From: Thioalkalivibrio sp.
Lineage (GTDB): Bacteria; Pseudomonadota; Gammaproteobacteria; SpSt-1174
Direction: 5' to 3'
NCBI GenBank assembly: GCA_011046015.1
Contig: DSBO01000164.1
Coordinates: 1 to 40,478 of the forward strand
Length of the DNA: 40,478 nt
Notes under the pieces: generated by a model
The model's input: only the letters and a program-made list of their open reading frames with translations
What the model was told of the DNA's origin: nothing
Database searches by the model: none
Part shown: in pieces, positions 18,218 through 40,478 of the stretch
How positions within the stretch are numbered: the stretch's first letter is position 1
Layout: each line of letters starts with the position of its first letter
Program-made: the position numbers and the translations under genes

Positions 18218-18231
18218 GGATATTGGCGAAT

Positions 18232-19656: not shown

Positions 19657-19660
19657 GCCC

Positions 19661-20158
19661 ATGGACGGGACGGTCGCCTACATCGGGCTCGGCAGCAATC
19701 TCGACGACCCCGCGGCCCAGGTGGCGCGGGCACTGGACGAGCTCGCGGCCATCGACGGCCTCGAGGTGACCGCCTGCTCGCGGCTCTATCACAACCCGCC
19801 CATGGGGCCGCAGGACCAGCCGGATTACATCAATGCCGTTGCTCGTGTGCTCACCAGGCTGCCGGCCGAGGTCCTGCTGGATGAACTGCTGGCCATCGAG
19901 CAGGCCCACGGCCGGGTGCGCGGTGGGGAGCACTGGGGTCCGCGCACCCTCGACCTGGACCTGCTGGTCTACGGCGAGGCGGTGATCGAGACCGGGCGGC
20001 TCACGGTGCCGCACCCGGGGTTAGCCGAGCGCGCCTTCGTCCTCTATCCCCTGCAGGAGATCGAGCCCGGGCTTCGGATTCCGCGCCTCGGTGCCCTGGC
20101 CGAGCTGTGCCGGCGTTGCCCGCGTGACGGCCTGCGTCCACTGGACCCTGTGGCATGA
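19661..20158 (+). CDS. folK: 2-amino-4-hydroxy-6-hydroxymethyldihydropteridine diphosphokinase
   Basis: MDGTVAYIGLGSNLDDP..., GPRTLDLDLL. ATG 19661 matches orthologue N-termini; the ORF track starts at GTG 19646. Confidence 0.9.
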   Translation: MDGTVAYIGLGSNLDDPAAQVARALDELAAIDGLEVTACSRLYHNPPMGPQDQPDYINAVARVLTRLPAEVLLDELLAIEQAHGRVRGGEHWGPRTLDLDLLVYGEAVIETGRLTVPHPGLAERAFVLYPLQEIEPGLRIPRLGALAELCRRCPRDGLRPLDPVA

Positions 20159-20805: not shown

Positions 20806-20833
20806 TCAGGGTCAGCCCCGTACAGGATCACGC

Positions 20834-21649
20834 ATGAGTCGACACCAGGAAGTTCGCCGCACCACCGTCACCCGCCTGCAGAAGCTCAAGGCCGAAGGCG
20901 AGAAGATCGCCTGCCTGACGGCCTACGACGCGAGCTTCGCACGCGCGCTGGATGCCGCCGGCGTGGACGTGATCCTGGTCGGTGATTCGCTGGGCATGGT
21001 AGTACAGGGACATGACACCACCGTGCCGGTGACCGTCGAGGACGTGCTCTACCACACGCGCTGTGTGGCGCGTGGCTGCGAGCGCGCGCTGCTCATGGCC
21101 GACATGCCCTTCATGAGCTATCCCACGCCCGAGCGTGCCCTGGACAATGCCGCCCGCTTCCTGCAGGAGGGCGGGGCGCAGATGGTCAAGCTCGAGGGCG
21201 GGGCGGCGCAGGAGGCGACCGTGCGTCTGCTCGCGCTAAACGGCATCCCGGTCTGCGCCCACCTCGGTCTCAAGCCGCAGTCCATCCACAAGCTGGGGGC
21301 CTACCGGGTGCAGGGGCGCGAGGCGGCGGCTGCCGATGCCATGGTGCGAGACGCCCTCGCGCTGGCCGAGGCCGGCGCCGACCTGCTGCTGCTCGAGTGC
21401 GTGCCCTCGGCCCTGGCCGACCGGATCCGCGACGCCGTGACCATCCCGGTGATCGGCATTGGCGCCGGCGCGGGCTGCGATGGGCAGATCCTGGTTCTGC
21501 ACGACGTGCTGGGCCTGACCGGTGCGGGTGACATGCCGCGGTTTGCAAAGGACTTTCTCGCCGGCAACGACGGCATCGAGGCGGCGGTCCGCGACTACGT
21601 CGAGCAGGTCAAGGCGGGCCGTTTCCCGGCGGCCGAACACGCGTTCTGA
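20834..21649 (+). CDS. panB: 3-methyl-2-oxobutanoate hydroxymethyltransferase
   Basis: KIACLTAYDASFA, VGDSLGMVVQGHDTT, KLEGG. Start at internal ATG 20834. Confidence 0.95.
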   Translation: MSRHQEVRRTTVTRLQKLKAEGEKIACLTAYDASFARALDAAGVDVILVGDSLGMVVQGHDTTVPVTVEDVLYHTRCVARGCERALLMADMPFMSYPTPERALDNAARFLQEGGAQMVKLEGGAAQEATVRLLALNGIPVCAHLGLKPQSIHKLGAYRVQGREAAAADAMVRDALALAEAGADLLLLECVPSALADRIRDAVTIPVIGIGAGAGCDGQILVLHDVLGLTGAGDMPRFAKDFLAGNDGIEAAVRDYVEQVKAGRFPAAEHAF

Positions 21650-22542
21650 TGCGCCGTGCAGCGACCATCGCCGGCCTGCGCGAGGCGGTTGATGCGTGGC
21701 GTCGGCAGGGCATGCGCGTCGCCCTGGTGCCCACCATGGGCAACCTGCACGCCGGGCACCTGGCCCTGGTGGCCCGCGCCCGCGAACTCGCCGACCGGGT
21801 GGTCGTCTCCGTGTTCGTCAATCCCCTGCAGTTTGACCGGCCCGATGACCTGGCGGCCTATCCGCGCACGCTCGAGCAGGACGCGGCGGCGCTGGACGCG
21901 GTGGGCGCCGACCTGCTGTTCGCGCCCGCGGAGCGGGAGGTCTATCCGGCCGGGGGCAGCCTCACCCGCATCGAGGTCGAGGGCGTGACGGCGGTGCTGG
22001 AGGGGGCGGCGCGCCCCGGGCATTTCACCGGTGTGGCCACGGTGGTCGCCAAGCTCTTCAACATGGCCCAGCCCGACGTGGCGGTGTTCGGCGAGAAGGA
22101 CTGGCAACAACTGCTGGTGATCCGGCGCCTGGTCGCCGACCTCGACTTTCCCGTGGTCATCGAGGGCCTGCCCACCGTGCGCGAGGCCGACGGCCTGGCC
22201 CTGAGCTCGCGCAACGGCTACCTCGCGCCCGAGGAGCGGCAGCGCGCGCCGCGGCTCTACGCCACCCTGGTGCAGCTGGTCGAGGCCCTGCGCGCGGGGG
22301 AGGACGACATCCCCCGCCTCGAGGCCCAGGCCGGCGAGGCCCTTGAAAAGGCGGGCTTTCGCCCCGACTACATCAGCGTGCGCCGCGCAGCGGATCTGGC
22401 CCTGCCCGGGCCGGCGGATCGCGAACTCATCGTGCTCGCGGCGGCCTGGCTGGGGCGGGCGCGCCTGATCGACAACCTCCCCTTCGAGCTGTCCGGGGCT
22501 CCGGGGGACGCCCCCCGCGAAGGTTTGAAGCAGGCGCACTAA
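21649..22542 (+). CDS. panC: Pantoate--beta-alanine ligase
   Basis: VPTMGNLHAGHLALV, FVNPLQF, FGEKDWQQ. TGATG overlap with panB. Confidence 0.95.
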   Translation: MRRAATIAGLREAVDAWRRQGMRVALVPTMGNLHAGHLALVARARELADRVVVSVFVNPLQFDRPDDLAAYPRTLEQDAAALDAVGADLLFAPAEREVYPAGGSLTRIEVEGVTAVLEGAARPGHFTGVATVVAKLFNMAQPDVAVFGEKDWQQLLVIRRLVADLDFPVVIEGLPTVREADGLALSSRNGYLAPEERQRAPRLYATLVQLVEALRAGEDDIPRLEAQAGEALEKAGFRPDYISVRRAADLALPGPADRELIVLAAAWLGRARLIDNLPFELSGAPGDAPREGLKQAH

Positions 22543-22620
22543 TCCCGCATAATTGTCGATCCGGTCGGCCATCAGGGTCGCCGGTCTGACGTTCAACAGC
22601 GATACCGAGGTTTTACAGGC

Positions 22621-23001
22621 ATGCATCTGACCCTGCTCAAGGCCAAGCTGCACCAGGCGCGCGTGACCCACGCGGAGCTGGAGTATGAGGGTTCCTGCGC
22701 GATTGACGGGCGGCTGCTCGACACCGCCGGTATCCATGAGTACGAACAGATCCAGATCTACAACATGAACAACGGCGAACGGTTCACGACCTATGCCATC
22801 CGTGCCGAGGACGGCAGCGGTGTCATCTCGGTGAACGGCGCCGCTGCGCGGCTCGCCTCCCCCGGCGACCGCGTCATCATCTGTGCCTACGCGCAGATCG
22901 ACAAGGCCGAGGTGGCCGAGTTCAAGCCCAACCTCGTCTACGTCAACGAGCGTAACCAGATCACCCGCACCAGTCACCAGATCCCGGTGCAGGCCGCCTG
23001 A
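22621..23001 (+). CDS. panD: Aspartate 1-decarboxylase
   Basis: [29 protein letters not shown] (self-cleavage Gly-Ser). 126 aa. Confidence 0.95.
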
Positions 23002-23013
23002 GGCGGCCTGCAC
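22987..23013 (+). terminator. Perfect 12-bp hairpin GTGCAGGCCGCC-TGA-GGCGGCCTGCAC with the panD stop codon as its loop; no U-tract
   Basis: Read directly from the sequence. Confidence 0.35.
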
Positions 23014-23463
23014 GCACCCGCACCGCGCCCCCCGGTCACGGGTGGGCCGGGCCGCGGGGCCCGAAAGCAATCCTCACGCCACAGGCGCCTGCCTGGTCCC
23101 ATACCCCCGCCGCGGCGGATGCAAAAAAGCAGTCGAAGTGCGGCGTCGCATGGCGCGTAGCCGGTGATCCGGGGAAGGCGGGCCGCCTGCAGACCGTGCG
23201 CCCGGGCGATTCTGCGGATCTACACCATGTTCATGACGGCGTCTCCCGTGGGCAGACTGTCGTGGCAAACGTCGTTCCCGTGACGTGATCGCGCGATTTC
23301 CATCGGTTCCGGTGGCCCCTTGCGGGTGCATCCGGGGGATCGGCGCCCCCGCGGCGTGCATGCGGTCCGGGGATTCGGGCGGCGGACACGGGGCCAAGTG
23401 TGAACGGCATCACGTTTTGTCGCCGCCGCCTGTGAACCCATTCATGTTCCGCGGTTTTTCACG

Positions 23464-23491
23464 TTGTATGACGGCGGGCTGGAATTAATAT
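23464..23491 (+). promoter_or_regulatory. Putative promoter TTGTAT-N16-TAATAT for the small secreted Sel1 gene
   Basis: Hexamers at 23464-23469 and 23486-23491 in the only AT-rich part of the panD-Sel1 spacer. Strong SD AAGGGGAGG before ATG 23547. Confidence 0.4.
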
Positions 23492-23546
23492 TGCAGTACA
23501 ACAAAATGAATGACACGACCACCACGAGAGCAAAGGGGAGGCCAGG

Positions 23547-23948
23547 ATGACGAAAGTCATGATTGCTCTTGCGATGTTGATGTGCGGCGTGGTGACGCTG
23601 GGCATGACCCAGCAGGCCGTCGCCAGTGATTCGGTCGAGCTCTACGAGCGCGGGCTGGATCAGCTGTACGGTAGCAACGGCGCGGAACAGAACCCGCAGG
23701 AGGCCGTGCGCTGCCTGACCGAACTCGCAGAGAGGGGATGGGCCATCGCCCAGTTCAAGCTGGGTGAGATCTACCACCAGGGGATAGGGGTCGCGGGTGA
23801 CCGCGTCGAGGCCTTCAAATGGTACTCGCAGGCGGCCCGCCAGCATTACCTGCCGGCCGAGGAACGGCTGGCGGAGCTCAGAAAGGAGATGGACTCCCGG
23901 GAACGGCGTGACGCCGCGCGTGTCGCCGTCCTCGATACGCGGATCTGA
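23547..23948 (+). CDS. Small secreted Sel1-like repeat protein
   Basis: Signal peptide MTKVMIALAMLMCGVVTLGMTQQAVA. SLR units (AQFKLGEIYHQGIGVAGDRVEAFKWYSQAARQ). 133 aa. Confidence 0.75.
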   Translation: MTKVMIALAMLMCGVVTLGMTQQAVASDSVELYERGLDQLYGSNGAEQNPQEAVRCLTELAERGWAIAQFKLGEIYHQGIGVAGDRVEAFKWYSQAARQHYLPAEERLAELRKEMDSRERRDAARVAVLDTRI

Positions 23949-24001
23949 CGCGTCCGCGCCCAAACGGAATCAACCAGTTTGCTTTGCATTGTCCGGCATT
24001 A

Positions 24002-24030
24002 GCCCCCTCATCCGAGGGGGCATTTTTTTG
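24002..24030 (+). terminator. Rho-independent terminator GCCCCCTC-ATCC-GAGGGGGC followed by ATTTTTTT, lying between the convergent Sel1 and ppc genes
   Basis: 8-bp GC stem plus a T7 tract, read directly. On the minus strand the stem is preceded by an A-tract, so it may also serve ppc. Confidence 0.75.
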
Positions 24031-24063
24031 CCCGGCCGTTTCCTGGCTGAAAAGCGCCGGCAC

Positions 24064-26889
24064 CTAGCCGGTGTTGCGCATGCCGGCCGCGATGGCGTTG
24101 ATGCTGCGCAGCAGCGGGCTCAACCAGGCGGCGTTCATGGTGGCATCCAGGTCAATGGAGCGCGTGCGTCGGATCAGGGTGATCTGGATGTGGTTGAGCG
24201 GATCCAGGTACGGGTTGCGCCGTGACAGCGAGAGTGCCAAGGCCTCGTTTTCCGCCAGCAGGTGGTCTTCCTGCACCACCTCGAGTACGTTGTTCACCGT
24301 ACGTTCGTATTCATCCCGCACCTTGCCGAAGATGCCTTTCGCCTGCTCCGGCCTGCTGCTGAGCTGGGCGTATTCCTCGGCGGTCTCCATGTCGGCCTTG
24401 AACAGCGACATCTGCACGTTGCTCAAGAGTGCGCGGAAGTAGGGCCAGTCGCGGTACATCTGGCGCAGGCGCTCGAGGTTCTCCGAGTCGTCCTGGCGCA
24501 CGCGCTCCAGCGCCGAACCGATGCCGTACCAGGCGGGCAGGGTATGGCGTGACTGCGCCCAGCCGAATACCCAGGGAATGGCGCGGATCGAGCCCTTGGA
24601 GCGGTCGGTCTGCTTGCGATGGGAGGGGCGCGAGCCGATGTTGAGCTGGCCGATCTCCATCACTGGTGTGACCTCGTAGAAGTAGTCGAGGAAGCCGGCG
24701 GTACGGTCCGTGAGGTCGCGGTAGCTATCCTCGCCGTACTGCGACATCTTCTCCATGATGCTCTTGGATGCGGCCGGTTCGGCGATCGATTTCTCCACCA
24801 GGCCGCGGCTGGCCTTGAGCAGGCCGGTGGCGCCCATGGTGAGCTCGTAGGCGGCCGTCTCCACGTTGCTGTACTTGTACGACAGCACCTCGCCCTGTTC
24901 GGTGAACTTGATCTGGCCGTGTACCGTGCCGGCCGGCTGGGAGAGGATGGCCTCGTGGGTGGGGCCGCCGCCGCGACCCACCGTGCCGCCGCGACCGTGA
25001 AACAGGCGGCATTCCACGCCGTGCTCGCCGGTCAGGCGGATGATGTTCTGCTGGGCCTGGTAGAGGTTCCAGGAGGAGGAGATGATGCCGCCGTCCTTGC
25101 AGGAGTCGGAGTAGCCGAGCATGACCTCCTGCAGGTTGCCTGCCACGCGCAGCAGCGCGGCATAGGTCGGGTTGCCGAGCAGGTCGGTGAGCACCTGTTC
25201 GACGTGCTTGAGGTCCTCGATGGTCTCGAACAGCGGGGAGATCAGGATGTCGCAGAACCATTCGCCGTCGCGTTGGCCGGCCAGCCCGGCCAGGCGCGCC
25301 AGCAGCATGACCTCCATCACGTGGCTGGCGGTATGCGTCATGGAGATGACGTAGGTGCCGAAGGTATCGGGGCCGGCTTCTTCGCGCATGCCGGCCATCA
25401 CGCCAAACGTCGCCAGGGTCTCGCGCGCCTGCTCGCCCAGGGCACCGGTGTCCACCGCCGGCAGCGCGTCCTCGCTGATCAGGCGACTCAGTGCCTCCAG
25501 GCGTCCCGCCTCGTCCAGCCCGCGGTAGTCGAGCTCGGGGGCGATCTGCGCTAGGATCTCCACGACCGCGTTGGTGTGCACGGTGGATTCCTGGCGGATG
25601 TCCAGGTTGAGCAGGTGAAAGCCGAAGCTTTCCACCAGGCGAATCAGGTCCTTGAGCCGTCCGTTGGCGATGTTGCCGTCGCCGTGGCTCGTGAGCGACT
25701 CGTGCATCACGTACAGGTCGGCCAGGAGCTCCTGCGGGGCGGCATAGGCCACCGACGGGAGCACGGCACGCTCGCCCTCCAGGCGCCGGCGCACGGTCTT
25801 GAGCGTCTCGCGCAGGCGATAGGCGATGAAATAGAGCTTACGGCGGTAGGGCTCGGTGCGGAACCGGTCGGGGTAGCCGCCGAACACCAGGTTGCTGATG
25901 CCCTCATCCTGCGCGAGGCTCTCGATGAAGGCCTCGGAGGGCTGGCAGAGCAGGATGGAGTGGGTGAGGATGTGGCGCAGTGCGTCGACGTGCTTGAGGT
26001 ATTCCTCCAGCACCTCCTGCATCTGCAGGCGCACGGCCAGCTCGGTGACGTCCGGGGTGACGTTGGGATTGCCGTCGCGGTCGCCGCCGATCCAGGAGCC
26101 GAAGCGGATGAAGCTCGGCACCTCGATCACCGGGGAACCGTCCTCGCGCAGCCCGTAGGTACGGCGTACCGCCTTCTCGAAGAAGCGGTAGGTGGTGGGC
26201 ACCGCCTCGAACAGGCTCTCCTGGAAATAGAACAGGCCGTACTTGATCTCGTCGCGCACCTGCGGTTTCTTGGTGCGCACCTCGTTGGTGCGCCACAGGA
26301 TCTGGATCTGGGTCTGCAGCTCGTCGGTGATGTCCTGGCGCTCTTCCTTCGACAGCTTCGGGTTGTCGAGTTTGTTGCTGGCGAGGAAGATGCGGCGCTG
26401 GGCCTCCATGATGGAGCGGCGACGGGCCTCGGTCGGGTGCGCGGTGAACACCGGCATGTAGCGTAGCTTCTCGATCAGCGTCTGCACCTGGCCGGGGTCG
26501 ATGCCCTGGTCGTGAAACTCGCGCAGGGTGTGGTCGAAGGAACCGCGCCATAGCGGGCCACCCGCGTGCAGCTGGCGCCGGCGCCAGCGGTGTGCCCAGG
26601 CCTCCTCGGCGATGTTGGCCAGCATGAAGTAGATGCTGAAGGCGCGGATGACCTGCTCCAGGGTCTGGACATCGAGGTCGTCGATGAAGGCCATCAGCTT
26701 CGCGCGCCGGGCGGGGTCGTCCTTCTTGCGCAGGCCGATGTAGCCCTTGCGCAGCTTCTCCACCGCATCGTAGACCGCCTGGCCCGCATGATCGCGCAGC
26801 AGGTTGCCGAGCAGCGTGCCCAGCAGCTTGACGCGTGAGCGCAATTCCTTGTCCTGCGGTCCGGTTTGCGTGTTCAGTGCAGCATTCAT
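24064..26889 (-). CDS. ppc: Phosphoenolpyruvate carboxylase
   Basis: VFTAHPTE, MLGYSDSCKDGG, FHGRGGTVGRGGGP, C-terminal ...GMRNTG. Start at internal ATG 26889 (MNAALNTQ...). Confidence 0.95.
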   Translation of the reverse strand: MNAALNTQTGPQDKELRSRVKLLGTLLGNLLRDHAGQAVYDAVEKLRKGYIGLRKKDDPARRAKLMAFIDDLDVQTLEQVIRAFSIYFMLANIAEEAWAHRWRRRQLHAGGPLWRGSFDHTLREFHDQGIDPGQVQTLIEKLRYMPVFTAHPTEARRRSIMEAQRRIFLASNKLDNPKLSKEERQDITDELQTQIQILWRTNEVRTKKPQVRDEIKYGLFYFQESLFEAVPTTYRFFEKAVRRTYGLREDGSPVIEVPSFIRFGSWIGGDRDGNPNVTPDVTELAVRLQMQEVLEEYLKHVDALRHILTHSILLCQPSEAFIESLAQDEGISNLVFGGYPDRFRTEPYRRKLYFIAYRLRETLKTVRRRLEGERAVLPSVAYAAPQELLADLYVMHESLTSHGDGNIANGRLKDLIRLVESFGFHLLNLDIRQESTVHTNAVVEILAQIAPELDYRGLDEAGRLEALSRLISEDALPAVDTGALGEQARETLATFGVMAGMREEAGPDTFGTYVISMTHTASHVMEVMLLARLAGLAGQRDGEWFCDILISPLFETIEDLKHVEQVLTDLLGNPTYAALLRVAGNLQEVMLGYSDSCKDGGIISSSWNLYQAQQNIIRLTGEHGVECRLFHGRGGTVGRGGGPTHEAILSQPAGTVHGQIKFTEQGEVLSYKYSNVETAAYELTMGATGLLKASRGLVEKSIAEPAASKSIMEKMSQYGEDSYRDLTDRTAGFLDYFYEVTPVMEIGQLNIGSRPSHRKQTDRSKGSIRAIPWVFGWAQSRHTLPAWYGIGSALERVRQDDSENLERLRQMYRDWPYFRALLSNVQMSLFKADMETAEEYAQLSSRPEQAKGIFGKVRDEYERTVNNVLEVVQEDHLLAENEALALSLSRRNPYLDPLNHIQITLIRRTRSIDLDATMNAAWLSPLLRSINAIAAGMRNTG

Positions 26890-26995
26890 AGACAAAACGA
26901 TCCCCCGCGGCTCGTGGCCGGTGGTGTGCTCGATTGGAAGAAGTCCCCCCGCACGGGGCGCAAAACGCGCCAGCCCCGGGCAAAAACAGCCGCAC

Positions 26996-27026
26996 ATTAT
27001 ACCGTGGGGAGCAGGAGCGATGGCAA
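26996..27026 (-). promoter_or_regulatory. Putative ppc promoter TTGCCA-N19-TATAAT (minus strand)
   Basis: Reverse complement of 27021-27026 and 26996-27001. The spacer is long, so confidence is low. Confidence 0.3.
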
Positions 27027-27067
27027 CCCGGGCCCGCGAGGCCTGGTCTTTCGCCCGCGTGGCGGGC

Positions 27068-28525
27068 TTAGTGGGGCTGGCGAATCAGCGACTTGTACAG
27101 GTCGCGATAGGCGCGGGCGCTGCGCTGCCAGCTGAAGTCGCGGATCATGCCCTGCTGCATCAGGCGTCGCCATGCGGCAGGGCGCGCATAGAGTTTCAGT
27201 GCGCGTTGCAGGGCCTCGCGCAGGGCCAGCGGGTCGTCCAGCTCGAAGCTGAAGCCGGTGGCCGTCCCGTCCTTCAGGGTCGCGGGGGTGCTGTCGACGA
27301 CGGTGTCGGCCAGCCCGCCGGTACGGCGTACCACGGGCGGGGTGCCGTAACGCAGGCTATACATCTGGTTCAGCCCGCAGGGCTCGAAGCGCGAAGGCAT
27401 GACGAAGAGGTCAGCGCCGGCCTCGACGAGGTGGGCGTGTCCTTCGCTGTAGCCGATGTGACCCGCCACGCGGTCGGGGAAGGTGGCGATCAGGTCACGC
27501 ACGCGCCGCTCCAGGGCCGCCTCGCCGGTGCCGAGGATTACCAGCTGCAGGTCTTCCTGCGCCAGCAGCGGCAGCACGGCGTCGAGCAGCAGGTCGACGC
27601 CCTTCTGCTCCACCAGGCGGCCGATGAAGGCGAACAGCGGGGTGCGCGCGCGGACGGGAAGTCCGAAGGCCTCCTGCAGGGCATGCTTGTTGCTTAGTTT
27701 CTGTTCGAGCGTGTCGCTGCTGTAGGGCGTATGGATGTAGGGGTCGGTCTGCGGATTCCATTCCTCGTAGTCGATGCCGTTGAGGATGCCGGTGAGCCGG
27801 TCGCGCCGGTAGGCGAGCAGCCCCTCGAGGCCGTAGCCGTGGCGCGGGGTCTGGATCTCCTCGGCGTAGCTCGGGCTCACCGTGGTCAGGTGGTCGGCGA
27901 ATACCAGCCCGCCCTTGATGAAGGACAGCTGGCCGTGGAACTCGAGGCCGTCGATGTGCCAAAGGCCCGAATCCAGGCCCAGTTCTGCCAGGGTCTGTGG
28001 CGGGAACAGGCCCTGGTAGGCGAGGTTGTGGATGGTGAACAGGGTGCCCGGGCGCTCGTCATGGGCGGCGAGCAGGGCGGGCACCAGGCCGGTCTGCCAG
28101 TCGTTGCAGTGCACGACGTCCGGCTGCCAGTCGAGCCCCGCCTGGTTCAGCGCCGCGCGCACCACGGCCTGGGCGAAGAGACCGAAGCGCAGCGCGTTGT
28201 CCTGCCAGTCACGCCCGTCGGGGGCGCGGTAGGGGTCGCCGGCGCGCTCGAAGAACAGCGGCGCATCGACCAGGTACAGCGGCAGCCGCGTGGAGGGCAG
28301 GCGACCGCGCAGGATGCGCACCGGCCCCGGGAACGGGGGTAGCTCCAGCTCCGCCATGACGCGCAGGCGCGCGACGCGTTCACGCGCCGCGGGATAGGCC
28401 GGCAGGATCAGGCGCACGTCCTGGCGCAGTGCCTTGAGCGCGCGCGGCAGGCTGCCGCTGACATCGCCGAGGCCCCCGGTCTTGATCAGGGGGAAGGCTT
28501 CGCTGGTGGCAAACAGGATTTTCAT
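27068..28525 (-). CDS. glgA: Glycogen synthase (ADP-glucose type)
   Basis: MKILFATSEAFPLIKTGGLGDV..., 485 aa, GT5 architecture. Confidence 0.95.
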   Translation of the reverse strand: MKILFATSEAFPLIKTGGLGDVSGSLPRALKALRQDVRLILPAYPAARERVARLRVMAELELPPFPGPVRILRGRLPSTRLPLYLVDAPLFFERAGDPYRAPDGRDWQDNALRFGLFAQAVVRAALNQAGLDWQPDVVHCNDWQTGLVPALLAAHDERPGTLFTIHNLAYQGLFPPQTLAELGLDSGLWHIDGLEFHGQLSFIKGGLVFADHLTTVSPSYAEEIQTPRHGYGLEGLLAYRRDRLTGILNGIDYEEWNPQTDPYIHTPYSSDTLEQKLSNKHALQEAFGLPVRARTPLFAFIGRLVEQKGVDLLLDAVLPLLAQEDLQLVILGTGEAALERRVRDLIATFPDRVAGHIGYSEGHAHLVEAGADLFVMPSRFEPCGLNQMYSLRYGTPPVVRRTGGLADTVVDSTPATLKDGTATGFSFELDDPLALREALQRALKLYARPAAWRRLMQQGMIRDFSWQRSARAYRDLYKSLIRQPH

Positions 28526-28652
28526 GACAGGCGGGTTCGAAACGGCTCGATGCGGATTTCACCAAAGCGTTACACGCGTGTGGCACGGTGGACGGGCCGT
28601 TCGCGAAGGTGCTTTACTTTACGGAAATATCAACGAGCAAGCGAGGGTTAAC

Positions 28653-29564
28653 ATGCAGCTGGCAATGATAGGCCTGGGACGCATGGGCGGCAATATGGCG
28701 CGGCGTCTGTCGCGTGCGGGACACAGCGTGGTGGGCGTGGACCGCGACCCGGCGGTGGCTAAGCGGCTCGAGCAGGAGGATGGCGTCGTCCCGGCGGCCA
28801 CGGTGGCTGAGGCCATCGGCCGGCTGGAGGCGCCGCGCGTCGTGTGGCTCATGCTGCCGGCCGGGGAGATCACCGAGCAGACCCTCAAGGAGATGATTCC
28901 GCTGCTCGAGCCCGAGGATATCGTCATCGACGGCGGCAACGCCTGGTATCGGGACAGCATCCGCCGCGGACAGATGCTGGCCGAGCATGGCATCCGCTAC
29001 GCGGACGCCGGTACCTCGGGCGGCGTGTGTGGGCTGGACAACGGCTACTGCATGATGGTGGGCGCGGAGGCGTCGGTGTTTCGTACCATCGAGCCGGTGA
29101 TCCGCGCGCTCGCCCCGGGCGAGGACCGCGGCTGGGCGCACGTGGGGCCGGTGGGTTCCGGTCACTTCACCAAGATGGTCCACAACGGCATCGAGTACGG
29201 CATGATGCAGGCCATGGCCGAGGGGCTGGCGATCCTCAAGGCCAAGGAGGAGTTTGCGCTCGATCTGGCGCAGATCACCGAGATGTGGCGCCACGGCTCG
29301 GTGGTGCGCAGCTGGCTGCTGGACCTCACCGCGGAGGCCTTTGCCCAGGACCAGGAGCTGGCCGACATCGCGCCGGTGGTGGCCGATTCCGGCGAGGGCC
29401 GCTGGACGGTGCTGGAGGCCGTCGAGCTGGGTGTGGCCGCACCGGTAATCGCGGGCTCGCTGTGGACGCGCTTCGACAGTCAGGATGACGAGGCCTATGG
29501 CAACCGCGTACTCGCGATCATGCGGCGCGCCTTCGGCGGTCACGCCATTACCAAGGGCGACTAG
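28653..29564 (+). CDS. gnd: 6-phosphogluconate dehydrogenase, short (~300 aa) decarboxylating type
   Basis: MQLAMIGLGRMGGNMARRL, GSGHFTKMVHNGIEYGMMQAMAEG. Start at internal ATG 28653 of ORF 28434..29564. Confidence 0.85.
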   Translation: MQLAMIGLGRMGGNMARRLSRAGHSVVGVDRDPAVAKRLEQEDGVVPAATVAEAIGRLEAPRVVWLMLPAGEITEQTLKEMIPLLEPEDIVIDGGNAWYRDSIRRGQMLAEHGIRYADAGTSGGVCGLDNGYCMMVGAEASVFRTIEPVIRALAPGEDRGWAHVGPVGSGHFTKMVHNGIEYGMMQAMAEGLAILKAKEEFALDLAQITEMWRHGSVVRSWLLDLTAEAFAQDQELADIAPVVADSGEGRWTVLEAVELGVAAPVIAGSLWTRFDSQDDEAYGNRVLAIMRRAFGGHAITKGD

Positions 29565-29570
29565 GCGGCA

Positions 29571-31055
29571 ATGCCCATCGAGCCCTGCACCTTCGTTATC
29601 TTCGGCGCCACCGGCAACCTCGCCGCCCTCAAGCTGCTGCCCGCGCTCTATCACCTGGAAGAGGACGGGCGACTGCCGGCGGGCGTCAAGGTGCTCGGGG
29701 TGGGGCGTCGCGACTGGAGCGCCGACGACTGGCGGGTCGAGGTCGAGGCCCATCTCGCCACGCGGGCCCGCAAGGGTGGGCTCGATGCCGAGGTCTTCGC
29801 GCGCTTTCGCCAGCGACTGCACTTCCAGCGGGGCGACCTGCGCCAGGACGCGGACTACGCGGCCCTGCGCCGACGCCTCGACGAGGATGCGGCCCTGCCC
29901 GCCCATGCCGTGTTCTACATGGCCATCCCGCCGGCCGAATATGCCGAGGTGGCGCAGCGCCTGGCCGCGCAGGGCCTGCACGAACAGGGCCGGGGCTGGC
30001 GCCGGCTGGTGGTGGAGAAGCCCTTCGGATACGACCTCGAGAGCGCCCAGACCCTGGAGCAGAGCCTGCACCGGCACTTCACCGAGCAGCAGATCTTTCG
30101 CATCGATCATTACCTGGGCAAGGGCACGATCCAGAATATCCTCGTGTTCCGTTTCGCCAACCTGCTGCTCGAGCCGCTGTGGAACCGCAACTACATCGAC
30201 CACGTACAGATCGTGCACGCCGAGTCGCGTGGCATCGAGGGGCGAGCGGCCTACTACGATGGCGCGGGCGCGCTGCGCGACATGATCCAGTCACACCTGC
30301 TGCAGATGCTCACGCTGGTGGCGATGGAGCCGCCGTCCTCGCTCGAGGGCGAGGCATTGCGCGACGAAAAGGTGAAGGTGCTGCGTTCCATTCGCCCCAT
30401 CACGCCCTCGGCCGTGCACGATCACGCCTTTCGCGCCCAGTACGCGCGGGGCGCGGTGCACGATGAAAGCGTGCGCGCCTACCGCGAGGAGGAGGGCGTC
30501 GCGCCCGACAGCCTCACCGAGACCTATGCCGCGCTCAAGCTCTACATCGACAACTGGCGCTGGCGCGGCGTGCCCTTCTACCTGCGCACGGGCAAGCGCA
30601 TGGCGACCGACAGCGCGATGGTGAGTATTCGCTTCAAGTATCCGCCGCAGCAGCTGTTTCGCGACACCACCATGGACCGCATCCGTCCCAACTGGCTGCT
30701 GCTCGGCATCCAGCCCGACGAGTGCATTCGCCTGGAGATGCAGGTGAAGCACGCCGGGCTCGAGATGAAGGCGCGGACCACCCAGCTCGATGCCAGCTAC
30801 TGCGCGCACGACGACGTGAAGATCGATGCCTACGAGGCACTCTTGCTGGACGTAATACAGGGTGAGCGCTCGCTGTTTCTCCGCTATGATGAGGTTGAGT
30901 GGGCCTGGCGCGTGGTCGACCCCGTGCTCAAGGTGTGGAACAACGAACGCGAGTTCATCCACAGCTACCCGGCGGGCAGCTGGGGGCCGGCGGAATCGGC
31001 GCGACTGTTTGATGCCGACGACCAGGCCTGGCGCAACAGCGTTGACAAGGAATAA
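29571..31055 (+). CDS. zwf: Glucose-6-phosphate 1-dehydrogenase
   Basis: [34 protein letters not shown]. 494 aa. Confidence 0.95.
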
Positions 31056-31114
31056 CCCAAGGGCATGCAACCACCGTCTCCGGTACGCGATCAGTCACGG
31101 GGTGACGACGATCG

Positions 31115-32767
31115 ATGACGATCCCGACGACCACATCCGGCTGGGCGCACCTCGCGGCGCATTACGACGCGATGAAGAATCGCCACATGCGCGATTTCTT
31201 CCGCGACGACCCCGAGCGGTTCGACCGCTACACGGTCCGCTTCGAAGACATTCTGCTCGACTATTCCAAGAACCGCGTGGTCGACGAGACCCTGCAGTAC
31301 CTGTTCGAGCTCGCGCGCGAGATGGCGGTCGAGGAGTGGCGCGACGCCATGCTGCGCGGCGATCCGATCAACAACACCGAACAGCGTGCCGTGCTGCACA
31401 CCGCGCTGCGCCATCGCGGCAGCACCCCGGTCTATCTCGACGGCGAGGACGTGATGCCGCTGGTGCGCGGCGTGCTCGCGCGCCTGCGCGCATTCTCCGA
31501 ACGCGTGCGCAGCGGCGAATGGAAAGGCTTTACCGGCGAGCCGGTCACGGATGTCGTCAACATCGGCATCGGTGGCTCCGACCTCGGGCCGCGCATGGTC
31601 TGCGAGGCGCTCAAGCCCTATGGCCACGAGCGCCTGCGCCTGCACTTCGTCTCCAACGTGGACGGTACCGACATCAGCGAGACCCTCAAGCGGGTCGATC
31701 CGCGTACGACGCTGTTCATCATCGCCTCCAAGACCTTCACCACCCAGGAGACGCTGACCAACGCCCACACCGCGCGTGACTGGCTGCTGCAGGCCTGCGC
31801 GGGCGATACCTCGGCCATCGCCCGGCACTTCGTCGCCGTGTCCACCAACCGCGAGGGGGTGACCGGTTTCGGCATCGATGCCGAGAACATGTTCGAGTTC
31901 TGGGACTGGGTGGGCGGGCGATACTCGCTGTGGTCGGCCATCGGACTGCCCATCGTGCTCGCCGTGGGTATGGACCGCTTCGAGGAGCTCCTGGCCGGTG
32001 CGCACGCGATGGATCGGCACTTCCAGGAGGCCGAACTCGAAGCCAACCTGCCGGTGATCCTGGCCCTGCTCGGTGTGTGGTACAACAACTTCTTCGGCGC
32101 GCAGGCGCATGCCATCCTGCCATACGATCAGTATCTCTCGTTGCTGCCGCGCTACCTGCAGCAGGCCGACATGGAGAGCAACGGCAAGTACATCGACCGC
32201 GACGGACGTCGTGTCGGTTATTCCACCGGCCCCATCATCTGGGGTCAGGCCGGCACCAACGGGCAGCACGCCTTCTACCAGTTGATCCACCAGGGCACCA
32301 AGCTGATCCCGGCCGACTTCCTCGCCCCCGCCGAGTCGCACCACCCGGTGGGTGAACATCATCGCATCCTGCTTTCCAATTTTTTCGCCCAGCCCGAGGC
32401 GCTGATGAAGGGGCGCAGCCTTGCCCAGGCGCGCAAGGAAGTGAAGAAGCTCGGTCTCTCGCCGGAAGACATGGACGTGCGCCTGCCGCACATGGTCTTC
32501 GAGGGCAATCGCCCCACCAATAGCATCCTGTTCCGCAAACTCACGCCGCATACCCTGGGCGCGCTCATCGCCATGTACGAGCACAAGATCTTCACCCAGG
32601 GCGTGATCTGGCATGTGAACTCCTTCGACCAGTGGGGCGTGGAGCTGGGCAAGACGCTGGCGAAGAAGGTGCTGAAGGAGCTGAGGGACGACGCGCCGGT
32701 GGAGGGGCACGATGCCTCCACCAACGGGCTCATCAACTACTACAAGGCGTTGCGCGGCGAGTTGTGA
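31115..32767 (+). CDS. pgi: Glucose-6-phosphate isomerase
   Basis: [46 protein letters not shown]. 550 aa. Confidence 0.95.
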
Positions 32768-32880
32768 GTTGCAAGTCGCAAGTTACAAGTCGCGGGTCGT
32801 GGGTCCGTTGCGGCGGGCGCGGCCCACGTCCTATTTTGACGGTCTTGTAACTTGCGACTTGTGACCCGCGACGTCTTGCC
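32764..32880. repeat. Two inverted arrays of degenerate heptamers (GCAAGTC-like) with an 18-bp perfect inverted core (32772-32789 / 32844-32861)
   Basis: Left array is gtgagtt gcaagtc gcaagtt acaagtc gcgggtc gtgggtc (32764-32805). Right array, read on the reverse strand, is gcaagac (gtc) gcgggtc acaagtc gcaagtt acaagac (32880-32845). CAAGTCGCAAGTTACAAG equals the reverse complement of CTTGTAACTTGCGACTTG. Confidence 0.85.
32798..32837 (+). terminator. pgi terminator-like hairpin (CGTGGGTCC...GGCCCACG) followed by TCCTATTTT
   Basis: Read directly. It sits in the loop between the two heptamer arrays. The queG stop codon (32831-32833) lies in the T-tract. Confidence 0.55.
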
Positions 32881-33949
32881 CGTGCCGCGCCAGCGCCCAG
32901 TGCACATGCTCGCGCACCAGTGCCGAGGGGTCGGCGGCGCGTGATCTGAGCGCGCTGACAACGGCCTCGCTGGTCGGGGCATTGCCCAGGGCCACGGCGA
33001 TGTTGCGCAGCCAGCGTTCGTGGCCGATGCGCCGGATCGCCGAGCCTTCCATGCGTGCGAGGAATTCCGCCTCGTTCCAGGCAAACAAGTCGCAGAGGCT
33101 GGCCGCGTCCAGGCCGTGGCGGGCGGCGAAGTCGGCGAGTTCGGTGGGTTGGGAGAAACGGTTCCAGGGGCAGACCAGCTGGCAGTCGTCGCAGCCATAG
33201 ATGCGGTTGCCGATCAGTGGGCGGAATTCCTCGGGGATCGGGCCCTGCAGCTCAATGGTGTGGTAGGAGATGCAGCGCCGCGCGTCGAGTTGATACGGGC
33301 CGACGATGGCCCGGGTCGGGCAGGCCTCGATGCAGGCGGTGCAGGTGCCGCAGTGCGCCTCGCCCGGTGCGTCAACCGGCAGGGGCAGGTCGGTATAGAG
33401 CTCGCCGAGGAAGTACCAGGAGCCGGCCTCCCGGCTCAGCAGGTTGGTGTGCTTGCCGATCCAGCCCAGTCCCGCCTTCTCGGCCAGGGCCTTTTCCAGC
33501 ACCGGCGCGCTGTCCACGAAGGCGCGGTAGCCGAAGGGGCCGGTCGCTGCCTTGATGCGGTCGGCCAGGCGTTGCAGGCGGTTGCGCATCAACTTGTGGT
33601 AGTCACGCCCCAGCGCGTAGCGCGAGATGTAGGCACGGTTGCCGTCGTCCAGCACCGATTCGGCCGGCGCCGCACCGGGCGGGCGGTAGTCCATGCGCAC
33701 GGAGATCACGCGGACCGTGCCGGGCACCAGCTCGGCCGGCCGGCTGCGACGCGTGCCGTGACGCGCCATGTACTCCATCTCGCCGTGCCAGCCGCGATCC
33801 AGCCAGTCGAGCAGGCGCGCCTCGTGTTCGGCGAGATCCGTGTCGGCGATGCCCGCCGCGCTGAAGCCGAGCTCAACGGCCCAGCGCCGGATGTCGGCGG
33901 CGAGTGCGGCGGGGTCGAGGTGGGGACGGGTCACGGTATCGGCGGTCAT
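32831..33949 (-). CDS. queG: Epoxyqueuosine reductase QueG
   Basis: CGTCTACIEACPT and CDDCQLVCPWN ferredoxin motifs, GWIGKHTNLL, HEAT-like C-terminus. Start at ATG 33949 (MTADTV...). The rest of the 926-aa ORF is antisense to nnr. Confidence 0.9.
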   Translation of the reverse strand: MTADTVTRPHLDPAALAADIRRWAVELGFSAAGIADTDLAEHEARLLDWLDRGWHGEMEYMARHGTRRSRPAELVPGTVRVISVRMDYRPPGAAPAESVLDDGNRAYISRYALGRDYHKLMRNRLQRLADRIKAATGPFGYRAFVDSAPVLEKALAEKAGLGWIGKHTNLLSREAGSWYFLGELYTDLPLPVDAPGEAHCGTCTACIEACPTRAIVGPYQLDARRCISYHTIELQGPIPEEFRPLIGNRIYGCDDCQLVCPWNRFSQPTELADFAARHGLDAASLCDLFAWNEAEFLARMEGSAIRRIGHERWLRNIAVALGNAPTSEAVVSALRSRAADPSALVREHVHWALARHGQDVAGHKSQVTRPSK

Positions 33950-33964
33950 CACGGGCTGCAGGTC

Positions 33965-33973
33965 TGGTAAAGT
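33965..33973 (+). promoter_or_regulatory. Extended -10-like element TGGTAAAGT in the queG/nnr divergent spacer
   Basis: Read directly. About 50 nt upstream of ATG 34022. Confidence 0.3.
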
Positions 33974-34021
33974 GTAACGTCTTATGGCTGCCCACTTCAT
34001 TGCCGCGTGCCGGATCAGCGC

Positions 34022-35523
<1,502 letters not shown>

Positions 35524-35527
<4 letters not shown>

Positions 35528-35997
35528 ACGACGTAGCGAGCACCCGAATGTACCGGGTCGAGTCCGCCGAGGCCATGGAGGCGCTGGGGGCGCAGCTGGC
35601 GAGCGCCGCACGCGCGCCGCTGGTGGTGTTCCTCGAGGGTGAGCTGGGTGCCGGCAAGACCACCCTGGTGCGCGGCTGGCTGCGCGAGCTGGGGCACGCG
35701 GGGGCGGTGAAGAGCCCCACCTACACCCTGGTCGAGCCCTACGAACTGCCGGGCGGAAATGTCTATCATTTTGATCTGTATCGACTTTCCGATGCCGAAG
35801 AGCTGGAGTACATGGGCATCCGCGAGTACCTCGCGGGCGATGCCGTGGCGTTGATCGAGTGGCCGGAACGGGGGCGGGGCGTGTTGCCGGGCGCCGACCT
35901 GGTCGTGGCCATCGCCTATCGCGCGGAGGGGCGCGATGTCCGTCTGGGCGCCCTGACGCCAGCCGGGCAGGCCATGCTGGGGCGGCTCCTACCCTAG
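35524..35997 (+). CDS. tsaE: tRNA t6A37 biosynthesis ATPase TsaE
   Basis: FLEGELGAGKTTLVRG, SPTYTLVEPY, HFDLYRL. ATGA overlap with the nnr stop. Confidence 0.9.
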
Positions 35998-36117
35998 GAT
36001 ATTTCGAGAAAGTTCGCCTATCTATATAAAATCATTGGATTTTGGGCTTGCTTTTCTGATTTGATTGCCTACACAATACTCACGGGCACCAGAATTTCGC
36101 CCGGGGAGGCTGTGACA

Positions 36118-37479
36118 GTGGGTATATCGAGGCACAATGCGCATCGCCGCTTGTTCCTGCGGCGTCTGATCGCCATGTCGGCCGGGGCGTCGGCCGCCCT
36201 GACGGCGCCGCGCCTGTTCGCCAGCGAGCCCGTGGTCGTCAGCGGCGTGCGCTTCTCGTCCCAGAATGGCGCGACCCGCGTGGTCTTCGACCTCAGCGGC
36301 GCCAGCGACCACAGCATCTTTTCCCTGCACGGTCCCGAGCGCGTGGTGCTCGATCTCAAGAACGCCCGGGTCCGTGACGCCCTCGACCTCTTTGCCCTGC
36401 CCAATTCCGTGGTCCGGCAGATCCGCCATGCCCCGCGCAATACCACCGACCTGCGCGTGGTGCTGGATCTGAAATCCGCCGTCAAACCACGTAGCTTCCT
36501 GCTCAAGCCCGACCCGGGTAGCGGTGCCGGGTATCGCCTGGTCGTCGATCTGGAGACCGGCTCGGGCGCGCAGCAGCCCGTGCTGACCGCCAACGGTGCC
36601 GATACCTCGGCCCTGCGTGATGTCATCGTGGCCATCGACGCCGGGCACGGCGGGCGCGACCCGGGCGCGGTGGGCAAGCTGGGCACCCGCGAGAAGGACG
36701 TGGTGCTGGCCGTTGCGCGCAAGCTCGAGGCCCTGCTGAAGAAAGAGAAGGGCATCAAGCCCGTGCTGATCCGCAGCGGCGACGAGTACCTCGCCCTGCG
36801 CGAGCGGATTCGCCGGGCGCGCGTGGCCAAGGCCGACCTGTTCGTCTCCATCCACGCCGATGCCTCGCCGGACTCCCGCGTACACGGCTCCTCCGTGTAC
36901 GTGCTCTCGCAGAACGGGGCGACCAGCGAGGCGGCCCGCTGGCTGGCCGAGCGTGAGAACTCGGCCGACCTGATCGGCGGCGTGAGCCTGGACGACAAGG
37001 ACGAGTTGCTCGCCTCGGTGCTGCTGGATCTCTCGCAGTCGGCCACCATCGAGGCCAGCATGGATCTCGCCGGTGACATGCTGGCCGAGCTCGATTCCGT
37101 GGGCCAGATCCGTCGCCGGCGCATCGAGCAGGCCGGCTTTGCCGTGCTCAAATCGCCGGATATCCCCTCGGTGCTGGTGGAGACCGCGTTCATCAGCAAC
37201 CCGACCGAAGAGAAGCGTCTGCGTACGCCCGCCCACCAGCAAAAGCTGGCCGAGGCGCTGCGCAACGGGGTGGTGCGTTACTTCCGCGGCCACGCACCGC
37301 CCGGCACCTGGCTCGCCCAGGCCCGTGACAACCGCTACGTGATCCGCAACGGCGACACCCTGTCGCACATCGCGGACCGCTTCCGGGTGAGCATCAACGA
37401 CCTGCGTAGCGTCAACGGCCTGCGCAACGACCGCCTACAGGTCGGCCAGGTGCTGATGATCCCCTCCAGCGATACCTGA
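36118..37479 (+). CDS. amiB: N-acetylmuramoyl-L-alanine amidase with Tat-like signal, AMIN domain, amidase_3 domain and C-terminal LysM
   Basis: RRLFLRRLIAMSAGASAALTAPRLFA, VAIDAGHGGRDPGAVG, LysM YVIRNGDTLSHIADRF...VGQVLMIP. GTG 36118 follows GGGGAGG; the ORF track starts at TTG 36061. The symbol is assigned from the tsaE-amiB-mutL synteny. Confidence 0.8.
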   Translation: MGISRHNAHRRLFLRRLIAMSAGASAALTAPRLFASEPVVVSGVRFSSQNGATRVVFDLSGASDHSIFSLHGPERVVLDLKNARVRDALDLFALPNSVVRQIRHAPRNTTDLRVVLDLKSAVKPRSFLLKPDPGSGAGYRLVVDLETGSGAQQPVLTANGADTSALRDVIVAIDAGHGGRDPGAVGKLGTREKDVVLAVARKLEALLKKEKGIKPVLIRSGDEYLALRERIRRARVAKADLFVSIHADASPDSRVHGSSVYVLSQNGATSEAARWLAERENSADLIGGVSLDDKDELLASVLLDLSQSATIEASMDLAGDMLAELDSVGQIRRRRIEQAGFAVLKSPDIPSVLVETAFISNPTEEKRLRTPAHQQKLAEALRNGVVRYFRGHAPPGTWLAQARDNRYVIRNGDTLSHIADRFRVSINDLRSVNGLRNDRLQVGQVLMIPSSDT

Positions 37480-37485
37480 TTGCGC

Positions 37486-37521
37486 GTGCCGCGCCGCGCC
37501 ATCGGGCGGCGCGGTGCTTTA
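37486..37521 (+). terminator. Terminator-like hairpin after the amidase gene (12-bp GC-rich stem with two G-U pairs, 8-nt loop) followed by TTTAT
   Basis: 37486-37497 pairs with 37506-37517, read directly. Confidence 0.45.
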
Positions 37522-37552
37522 TGCCGGCGGCGTGAGTCTATATTCTTCACGC

Positions 37553-39345
37553 ATGCCGATTCGACAGCTCCCCCCGCAACTCATCAACCAGATCGCCGCC
37601 GGCGAGGTGGTCGAGCGCCCGGCCTCCGTGTCAAGGAACTGCTCGAGAACAGCCTGGACGCCGGTGCCACGCGCATCGTCATCGACGTGGACCAGGGCGG
37701 CGTCAAGCGCATCCGCGTCCGCGACGATGGCGTCGGCATCCCCCGTGAGGAGCTGTCTCTCGCGCTCAGCCGCCACGCCACCAGCAAGATCGGCAGCCTC
37801 GACGACCTGGAGCGGGTACGCAGTCTCGGCTTTCGCGGCGAGGCGCTGCCGAGCATCGCGTCGGTCTCGCGCCTGACGCTCACCTCGCGCACGGCGGATG
37901 CGGCCAGCGGCTATCGGCTGGCCAGCGACGGGGCCGAGGTCTTCGGCGAGCCCGAGCCCGCCGCTCACCCGCAGGGCACCACCATCGAGGTGGCGGATCT
38001 CTTCTTCAATGTGCCCGCGCGGCGCAAGTTCCTGCGCAAGGAGGCCACCGAGTACGGGCACCTGGAGCAGGTGGTCAGGCGCATCGCGCTCAGCCGTTTC
38101 GACATCGGCATCGAGCTCAGGCACAACGGCCGTTCCGCGTTCGCGCTGCGTCCGGCCCCGACGCGCGAGCAGCAGGAGCGGCGTATCGGCGAGGTCTGCG
38201 GCCCGGTCTTCATCGAGAACGCGGTGCACGTCGATTACGTCTCCGGCGACCTGCGCATCCGCGGCTGGATGGGACTGCCCACCTTCTCGCGCAGCCAGGC
38301 GGACCTGCAGTACTTCTACGTCAACGGCCGCATGGCGCGTGACAAGGTCATCACCCACGCGATACGCCAGGCCTACCAGGACGTGCTCTATCACGGCCGC
38401 CAGCCGGCGTTCGTGCTGTTCTTCGAGCTGGACCCGGCGCTGGTGGACGTCAATGCCCATCCGACCAAGCACGAGGTGCGTTTCCGCGAGCAGCGCCTGG
38501 TACACGATTTCCTCTACCGCACCCTGCATCAGGCCCTGGCCGACATCCGTCCGGCGGCGGGGGAGGAGCCGGGCTACCCGGCGCTCGGGTTCGATCCGGC
38601 CGCGGCCGGCGAAGGCGGGGGTGCCGTGCCGGCGGCCCCGTCGGCGTGGGCGCCGCCGCGCCAGGGCGTCATGCCGATGGCGGCGATGGAGCAGGTGGCG
38701 GCCTACGGGGCCCTGCACCAGGCCGGCGCCGTGCCGTCGCCGGCCGCCGCCGGCGACGAGCTGCCGCCGCTCGGCTACGCCCTGGCCCAGCTGCACGGCA
38801 TCTACGTGCTGGCACAGAACGCTCATGGCCTGGTGCTGGTGGACATGCATGCCGCCCACGAGCGCATCACCTACGAACACCTGAAGACCGCCTGGGACAG
38901 CCAGCAGGTCACCTCGCAGCCGCTGCTGGTCCCGCTCACGGTGGCCGTCAGCCGACGCGAGGCCGATGCCGCCGAGGCGCAGACCGAGACCTTCCGTGCC
39001 CTGGGCTTCGAGGTCGGGCGCATGGGTCCGGAATCGCTGGTGATCCGCGCGGTGCCGGCCCTGCTGCGCCATGCTGACGTCGAGGCCCTGCTGCGCGACG
39101 TGCTGGCCGACCTCCTGGAGCACGGCCAGAGCGCGCGGGTACAGCAGTCCATCAACGAGCTGCTCGGGACCATGGCCTGTCACGGCTCGGTGCGCGCCAA
39201 CCGGCGCCTGACCGTCCCGGAGATGAATGCCCTGCTGCGCGATATGGAGCGCACCGAGCGCAGCGGCCAGTGCAATCACGGGCGGCCCACCTGGGTGCAG
39301 CTCAGCATCGACCAGCTCGACCGCCTGTTCATGCGTGGGCAGTAG
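37553..39345 (+). pseudogene. mutL: DNA mismatch repair protein MutL, interrupted by an apparent 1-nt deletion (frameshift) at about 37630
   Basis: ATG 37553 encodes [26 protein letters not shown] in one frame. The continuation [24 protein letters not shown]...[14 protein letters not shown]...[11 protein letters not shown] is in the frame of ORF 37480..39345. The junction reads GTGTCAAGG where GTGGTCAAGG is expected. Confidence 0.85.
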
Positions 39346-39348
39346 GGC

Positions 39349-40314
39349 ATGGTCGCGACGAGCGGGCAGGGGGCGGAGGTGCCCCCGTGCATCTTCCTCA
39401 TGGGGCCGACCGCCTCGGGCAAGACGGACCTCGCCGTGGCGCTGGTCGAGGCCCTGCCCTGCGAGATCATCAGCGTCGACTCGGCGCTGGTGTACCGCGG
39501 CATGGACATTGGCACGGCCAAGCCCGATGCGGCCACCCTGGCGCGCGCCCCGCATCGCCTCATCGACTTTCTCGATCCGGCCGAGAGTTATTCTGCCGCC
39601 CGCTTTCGCGCCGATGCCCTGCGCGAGATCCGCGACATCCACGCCGCCGGCCGTGTGCCGCTGCTGGTGGGTGGCACCATGCTCTATTTCCGCGCCCTGC
39701 AGTACGGGCTCTCCGAGCTGCCGGCGGCCGACCCGGCGGTGCGTGCCCGCCTCGATGCCTGGGCCGCGCGGGAGGGCTGGGCGGCCCTGCACGCGCGCCT
39801 GGCCGAAGTGGACCCGGTCTCGGCCGCGCGTATCCACCCCAACGACCCGCAGCGCCTGCAGCGCGCGCTGGAGGTCTTCGAGGTCACGGGGCGGCCGCTG
39901 TCGGCCTTTCATGCCCGCGGCCGGGCGGGGGATTTCGACTGCCGCCTGCTCAAGTTCGGTCTGCTGCCGCGCGACCGGGCCCTGCTGCATGCGCGCATTG
40001 CGGCGCGCTTCGAGCAGATGCTGGCGGCGGGGCTAATGGACGAGGTACGCGGCCTGCGCGCGCGCGGTGACCTGGATATCGGCATGCCTTCGATGCGTTC
40101 GGTGGGGTACCGCCAGGTCTGGGAGCATCTCGAGGGGAACTATGATTACGCCACCATGGTCCGAAAGGGCATCGCGGCCACCCGCCAGCTTGCCAAGCGT
40201 CAGCTCACCTGGCTGCGTTCCGAGTGCGACGTCGAGCCGCTGACCATCGAGTCCCTGGATCCACGCGCGGTGATCGACCGGGTAGCCGCCTTCCTCGACG
40301 CCGGAGGAAAATGA
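39349..40314 (+). CDS. miaA: tRNA dimethylallyltransferase
   Basis: [41 protein letters not shown]. 321 aa. Confidence 0.95.
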
Positions 40315-40322
40315 GACCCGTG

Positions 40323-40331
40323 TGCTACAAT
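40323..40331 (+). promoter_or_regulatory. Extended -10 element TGCTACAAT upstream of hfq
   Basis: Read directly just after the miaA stop. hfq promoters close to or inside miaA are known in E. coli. Confidence 0.35.
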
Positions 40332-40432
40332 GCGGAAAATAAATCGGTTTTTCTCATGAACTGCAGTAAGCTACGGCCATCGGCCACCATGCGCCCGCTC
40401 ACCTTATAAAACCAAGACAGGAGCCACAGGCA

Positions 40433-40478
40433 ATGTCAAAAGGGCAGACCTTACAAGAACCCTTCCTGAACACGCTGC
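40433..40478 (+). CDS. hfq: RNA chaperone Hfq, first 15 codons only (runs off the right edge)
   Basis: MSKGQTLQEPFLNTL matches the conserved Hfq N-terminus. SD AGGAG lies upstream. Follows miaA. Confidence 0.9.
   Translation, partial: MSKGQTLQEPFLNTL

Follow-up and report, generated by a model that had tools for sequence, protein, structure and literature searches.

A single-base break in mutL, private to one metagenome contig, beneath a 621-residue open reading frame

Does the mutL locus of the window analysed here (the whole stretch of DNA, 40,478 bases in length) encode a complete MutL and, if it does not, does the break belong to the DNA of a living strain, to the making of the contig, or to a change of frame that the cell itself carries out? 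The locus is covered by a long open reading frame (ORF) that scores as MutL, and the two frames that this ORF overlies are described first.

The two frames of mutL and the ORF that covers them

The true start of mutL is ATG 37553 on the forward strand. Frame A, which opens there, reads codons 1–26 (37553..37630, +; assigned from the MutL profile, the orthologue alignment and GC3) and continues into an out-of-frame tail, SRNCSRTAW... (37631..37876, +), that ends at TGA 37874–37876. Codon 26 is GTG 37628–37630 and is followed in frame A by TCA AGG AAC. Read from 37630 in frame B, the frame of the ORF 37480..39345, the same DNA gives GTC AAG GAA CTG... and stays open to the stop, and mutL codons 27–597 with their stop codon (37630..39345, +) carry the rest of the GHKL ATPase, the transducer and the C-terminal domain. 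In frame A, G37630 closes codon 26; in frame B it opens codon 27. One G added after 37629 or 37630 gives an uninterrupted protein of 597 residues that contains ...PASVVKELLEN.... A preliminary description had placed the MutL N-terminus in the frame running from ATG 37553 to a stop at 37876, and all remaining MutL sequence in the frame of the 621-residue ORF. The coordinates and sequence of the first are as claimed, and the second is confirmed by the sequence, the NCBIfam profiles and GC3.

In the NCBIfam searches (MutL profile NF000949, cut-off 750 bits; TIGR00585 is the related profile), the frame-A peptide matches positions 1–27 of the MutL profile (E = 1.6e-10), frame B matches from position 23–28 to the end, and the repaired protein matches from position 1 with 905 bits. 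A comparison with the MutL family had been proposed as a check on the frame switch; the profile matches do break, at codon 26/27. GC3 changes frame at the same place: over codons 1–26 frame A has 0.88 and frame B 0.44, and past the junction frame B has 0.90 and frame A 0.72. Over the remainder of mutL the codon bias is undisturbed and no second lesion was found in codons 27–597. A search of the junction for a direct-repeat or hairpin mechanism gave nothing beyond chance.

The window's MutL has Pfam HATPase_c_3, HATPase_c, DNA_mis_repair and MutL_C, and its N-terminal domain aligns from residue 1 with the LN40 structures of Escherichia coli MutL (E = 1e-131). The CNHGRP motif and the second C-terminal endonuclease motif are present and are invariant in the orthologue alignment. 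We take the motifs D[QM]HA(X)2E(X)4E and C(P/N)HGRP to mark the MutH-independent, endonuclease-type MutL found in Pseudomonas, and judged by its sequence the window's mutL is of this type. Residues 1–26 align with residues 1–26 of the E. coli N-terminal-domain structures, and residues 12–26 (N12–V26) are invariant in 15 orthologues. In the window these 26 residues, in frame A, are not contiguous in frame with the ATPase core, residues 27–597 being in frame B. The locus is a mutL gene that, as written, encodes no complete MutL.

The ORF that covers the break (37480..39345, +; 621 residues, TTG start) is a chimera of a 73-nt spacer, codons 1–26 read out of frame and codons 27–597 read in frame. 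Its TTG directly adjoins the stop codon (TGA 37477–37479) of the upstream gene, which encodes an AmiB-type N-acetylmuramoyl-L-alanine amidase (36118..37479, +; AMIN, Amidase_3 and LysM domains; called at 453 residues in all sibling contigs), just as the preliminary description had stated. The amiB–mutL intergenic spacer (37480..37552, +) makes up codons 1–24 of the ORF. GC-rich hairpins (inverted repeats at 37489–37514) and a weak terminator-like site (37518–37536) lie in it, and it is identical in the sibling contigs described below, where mutL begins at the ATG. The 78 nt after the spacer are mutL codons 1–26 out of frame, and the description was right to call the first 50 or so residues of the ORF out-of-frame sequence: the 5' 150 nt consist of the spacer and then of out-of-frame codons. 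Downstream lies miaA (39349..40314, +), the product of which is identical in the sibling contigs and served to retrieve them. The gene order amiB–mutL–miaA–hfq is conserved, including in three outgroup contigs.

The warning that gene callers would take the locus for an intact MutL holds for the public record of this contig. P0122 (JGI/IMG, 621 aa) is the public gene call and begins at TTG 37480; it is recorded on a single contig of 40,478 bp, equal in length to the window, which is thus an IMG metagenome contig in its entirety. In the 90% identity cluster of this MutL it stands with two other members, both of 597 residues. The call passes both Pfam, in which all four MutL domains are found with scores nearly those of the intact protein, and NCBIfam, in which frame B alone reaches 848.5 bits against the cut-off of 750. 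The NCBIfam matches begin only at ORF residue 47–51.

A further reading is that the deletion is real but harmless, MutL being made from TTG 37480 or GTG 37486, or from a downstream restart, in a form that still supports mismatch repair. Some 50 foreign, Arg-rich residues would then stand in for residues 1–26. Frame B does keep motif I (E29, N33) and all later domains, and its score lies above the family threshold. The residues that it lacks, however, include the invariant stretch 12–26, and the N-terminal segment of a GHL ATPase monomer contacts the ATPase/nucleotide site of its partner (PMC3724809). Neither TTG 37480 nor GTG 37486 is preceded by a Shine–Dalgarno-like sequence, the extension crosses the spacer hairpins, and the next in-frame start, GTG 37687, removes motif I. 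We regard a functional product of this kind as most improbable.

Comparison with sibling assemblies and outgroups

Relatives were retrieved as contigs encoding the window's exact MiaA, TPR protein, DctP (338 aa) and G6PD, together with an intact MutL. Four sibling assemblies were obtained, ERZ27245514 (k141 names), ERZ1742330 (NODE names), Logan SRR7787771 and JGI 3300022547; they may share read sets, and differ from one another at several sites. The outgroups, at 85–87% protein identity, were GCA_014762505 (a MAG named Chromatiales bacterium), ERZ4891810 and JGI 3300031111. As a side observation, JGI 3300022547 also yielded the type MAG `Anaeroferrophillus wilburensis'. In the genome collection the best match to the repaired MutL, among the matches listed, is 64% identical. 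Exact-pattern scans of the metagenome collection with either allele and with the shared downstream sequence returned no matches, the collection evidently being without these contigs.

Together, the sibling contigs cover window positions 1..40478 at 99.92–100% identity, and over these 40,478 bases the only indel that separates them from the window is the G at 37630. In the DNA alignment with the four sibling assemblies and three outgroup contigs, the window reads GTGTC where all relatives read GTGGTC. The deletion site (37630..37630, +) is a single G against GG in the relatives, located by the alignment and the pairwise differences; the preliminary description had put the missing G near 37630, and the alignment fixes it there. 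The window's deletion allele is GTGTCAAGG. All four sibling assemblies read CCGTGGTCAAGG and encode a MutL of 597 residues, and GTGGTCAAGG stands at the junction in the four sibling assemblies and the three outgroup contigs alike, with intact MutL proteins of 595–598 residues. Apart from the break, residue 90 alone distinguishes the window's MutL from the sibling proteins; in the case of P0001, residue 218 differs as well. No other indel against the near-identical contigs was found in the whole window, in agreement with the earlier statement that mutL is its only disrupted gene.

As four siblings and three outgroups carry GTGGTCAAGG and an intact MutL, the mutL break is private to this contig. 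It is neither programmed frameshifting nor an old or lineage-wide pseudogene. A real lesion must be very recent, and the rest of the gene has no second defect. The comparison with sister strains that the preliminary description had called for finds mutL in a single frame, with the G present, in seven of seven relatives. The description had further held that a close relative carrying GTGGTCAAGG would point to an assembly error. Four assemblies do carry it, but the error is not thereby proven, because a real deletion private to one strain would look alike.

The same comparison bears on the proposal that programmed −1 ribosomal frameshifting or transcriptional slippage restores a full-length MutL. 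A −1 shift that re-reads G37630 gives exactly PASV-VKELLEN, and the recoding product would span ...ERPASVVKELLEN...; this agreement is, though, the trivial outcome of losing one G of GG. The gene runs through this site in one frame in all seven relatives, four of which are 99.9% identical, and no two-frame arrangement is conserved. No X XXY YYZ heptamer occurs at 37620–37640. Frame A contains a single such heptamer, C CCC CCG at 37570, 55 nt upstream of the site; the intact genes have it too, and a shift at that point would cost the protein residues 8–26. The predicted fold of the 100 nt downstream (37634–37733) is no better than that of shuffled sequences (z = −0.78), and there is no long A or T run on which transcription could slip. 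Known cases of programmed −1 frameshifting, of the dnaX or IS-element type, share with the window two overlapping frames and a −1 shift that gives the full protein; the window site differs in having no slippery heptamer, stimulatory structure or conservation, and in that its relatives are in frame. The preliminary description had thought programmed frameshifting unlikely for want of a slippery heptamer; here the seven in-frame relatives exclude it, and to recoding in any form we assign next to no probability.

The sibling comparison also shows that the window carries its own version of mutL. A base 190 bp from the deletion (37819..37819, +) is C in the window, making codon 90 CGC (Arg), and T in all four siblings, making it TGC (Cys). 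Because the outgroups read CGC, as the window does, the window's Arg90 is ancestral and the siblings share a derived change. Residue 90 is variable among MutL orthologues. The base was considered as a sign of pseudogene decay and was rejected as such, the outgroups making the Arg codon ancestral. The window is thus a distinct haplotype at mutL, from a strain that none of the siblings represents there, and the siblings cannot show that the window's strain has the G.

Outside mutL, two private substitutions were found in 40 kb of the window (11339 and 18022, both transitions). Each sibling has 0–3, and the window is no higher. No mutator footprint in the form of an excess of private substitutions is visible in the 40-kb window, a result of very low power given the few counts. 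At 36125 and 38207 the window groups with JGI 3300022547, and at 40257 with SRR7787771. This mosaic of shared polymorphisms points to recombination between strains that occur together, or else to consensus paths that are chimeric.

A real allele or an artefact of assembly

The preliminary description had left two causes side by side, an error of assembly and a genuine lesion in mismatch repair. Both still stand. We put the probability that the sampled strain really has the deletion in its DNA, as a very recent null allele, at roughly 0.52, and prefer this explanation; that it is a consensus or assembly artefact, with no cell carrying the deletion and a normal 597-residue MutL in the organism, has a considerable probability that falls short of one half. 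Rough prior arithmetic gives 0.4–0.6 for the real allele, and is sensitive to the assumed indel error rate and the assembly pipeline.

In the artefactual case, the G would have been lost in sequencing, error correction, bubble resolution or contig merging of a low-coverage, strain-mixed metagenome. When a highly conserved gene in a public metagenome contig shows an isolated frameshift, the cause is often an artefact, and several observations fit such an origin: the G is present in every other assembly of the population and in every outgroup, the private substitutions of the window show no excess, and the gene is perfect apart from the break, with the rest of mutL and its codon bias intact, exactly as an artefact would look. 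The allele rests on one consensus in one contig, and protein look-ups found no second record of its product. Coverage of the organism is low in at least one sibling sample, at about 8–10x (the SPAdes cov values in ERZ1742330 are 7.9 and 9.9).

Against an artefact, and for a real deletion, is first the quality of the remaining sequence. The deletion is the sole indel in 40.5 kb and sits in a mere GG, with no long homopolymer at the site, while the 76 homopolymer runs of at least 5 nt in the window, 16 of them of at least 6 nt, all match the siblings in length. A C6 run within mutL, 55 nt upstream of the deletion, is likewise intact and as long as in the siblings. Sibling against sibling, 144.7 kb of pairwise alignment holds 27 mismatches and no gaps. 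Moreover, mutL makes up 1,794 of the 40,478 bases, and a uniformly placed error would strike it with a probability of only 4.4%; the gene is also among the few conserved ones in which null alleles arise repeatedly in nature. Finally, the deletion is linked over 190 bp to a true private polymorphism, the Arg90 codon.

The ends of the contig have a bearing on how it was assembled. Window base 1 falls within a minus-strand gene for a dctM-like TRAP permease. Three sibling contigs start at this same base, ERZ27245514 k141_257745, ERZ1742330 NODE_624 and JGI 3300022547 Ga0212126_1018832, and the shared start spans MEGAHIT-style, SPAdes-style and JGI assemblies. The coincidence points to a junction just left of base 1 that varies between strains. 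Because the start base is common to differently assembled contigs, we infer that it is an assembly-graph branch point in a strain mixture and that the window is a short-read graph assembly. Isolated 1-nt deletions in unique sequence are rare in short-read (de Bruijn) graph assemblies, and membership of a class with a very low indel error counts against an artefact.

At its right end, position 40478, the contig stops inside hfq, at about codon 15. The four sibling contigs run past this point and agree with one another over 1.8 kb or more. Coverage may have given out there, or the window's sample may contain another species with a k-mer in common. An abrupt end where the siblings continue without polymorphism is compatible with thin coverage nearby and, to that extent, with an artefact.

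Two further features of the window were recorded. The pgi–queG spacer (32761–32872) holds a 29-nt imperfect inverted repeat with arms 54 nt apart and a 17-nt perfect core, AAGTCGCAAGTTACAAG / CTTGTAACTTGCGACTT; contigs of three other assemblies start or end at 32700–32843, and their last bases disagree there. At about 6984–7751 (+), between a cytochrome c assembly gene and ffh, lies a gene for a 255-residue protein of metallo-β-lactamase fold, annotated in siblings with Pfam Anti-Pycsar_Apyc1, Lactamase_B and PDEase_II.

Single-base assembly indels that give rise to pseudo-pseudogenes resemble the present case in that one base is affected, in one contig, in a perfect conserved gene that is intact elsewhere. 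They differ in that the window site is no long homopolymer and the indel is the only one in its contig, in the zero rate among the siblings, and in the contig-private true polymorphism beside the deletion. The mutL and mutS mutators described from cystic fibrosis Pseudomonas aeruginosa, E. coli and Salmonella offer the other parallel: a small, early frameshifting indel is private to one strain while other members of the population keep an intact gene, and loss of repair is what would be expected from the MutH-independent, endonuclease-type mutL of the window. The difference is that the window's allele is known from one metagenome consensus alone, and its host is an uncultured Chromatiales-like organism and no pathogen.

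What the break would mean

If the deletion is real, the preferred explanation would run as follows. A strain belonging to an uncultured Chromatiales-like population, and also bearing the ancestral Arg90 codon, would have lost one G from the GG that spans codons 26/27 of an endonuclease-type mutL with no other defect. Ribosomes starting at the true ATG would make a nonsense peptide of 107 residues, and any product of the long ORF would be without residues 1–26, the segment that reaches into the ATP site of the partner subunit. With these residues lost from any product, the allele would be mismatch-repair null and the cells that carry it mutators. Null alleles of mutL and of mutS are found repeatedly, in nature as well as in the clinic. 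That a naturally occurring mutator subpopulation has here been caught in a metagenome assembly, with the null on the Arg90 haplotype coexisting with repair-proficient Cys90 strains, is a possibility to which we give almost an even chance.

A real allele and an artefact are both known kinds of thing, the finding is an ordinary one, and neither outcome alters what is known of mismatch repair. What the finding offers in practice is a warning about a mis-called public protein: the 621-residue record is a chimera with 50 spurious residues, from which the true N-terminus is absent, and nevertheless it scores above the MutL thresholds. If the break proves to be an artefact, the locus would be a clean example of a long ORF hiding a frameshift from gene callers. 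If it is real, it would add a modest field case of a segregating mutator allele, from an environmental population and not from the clinic or the laboratory.
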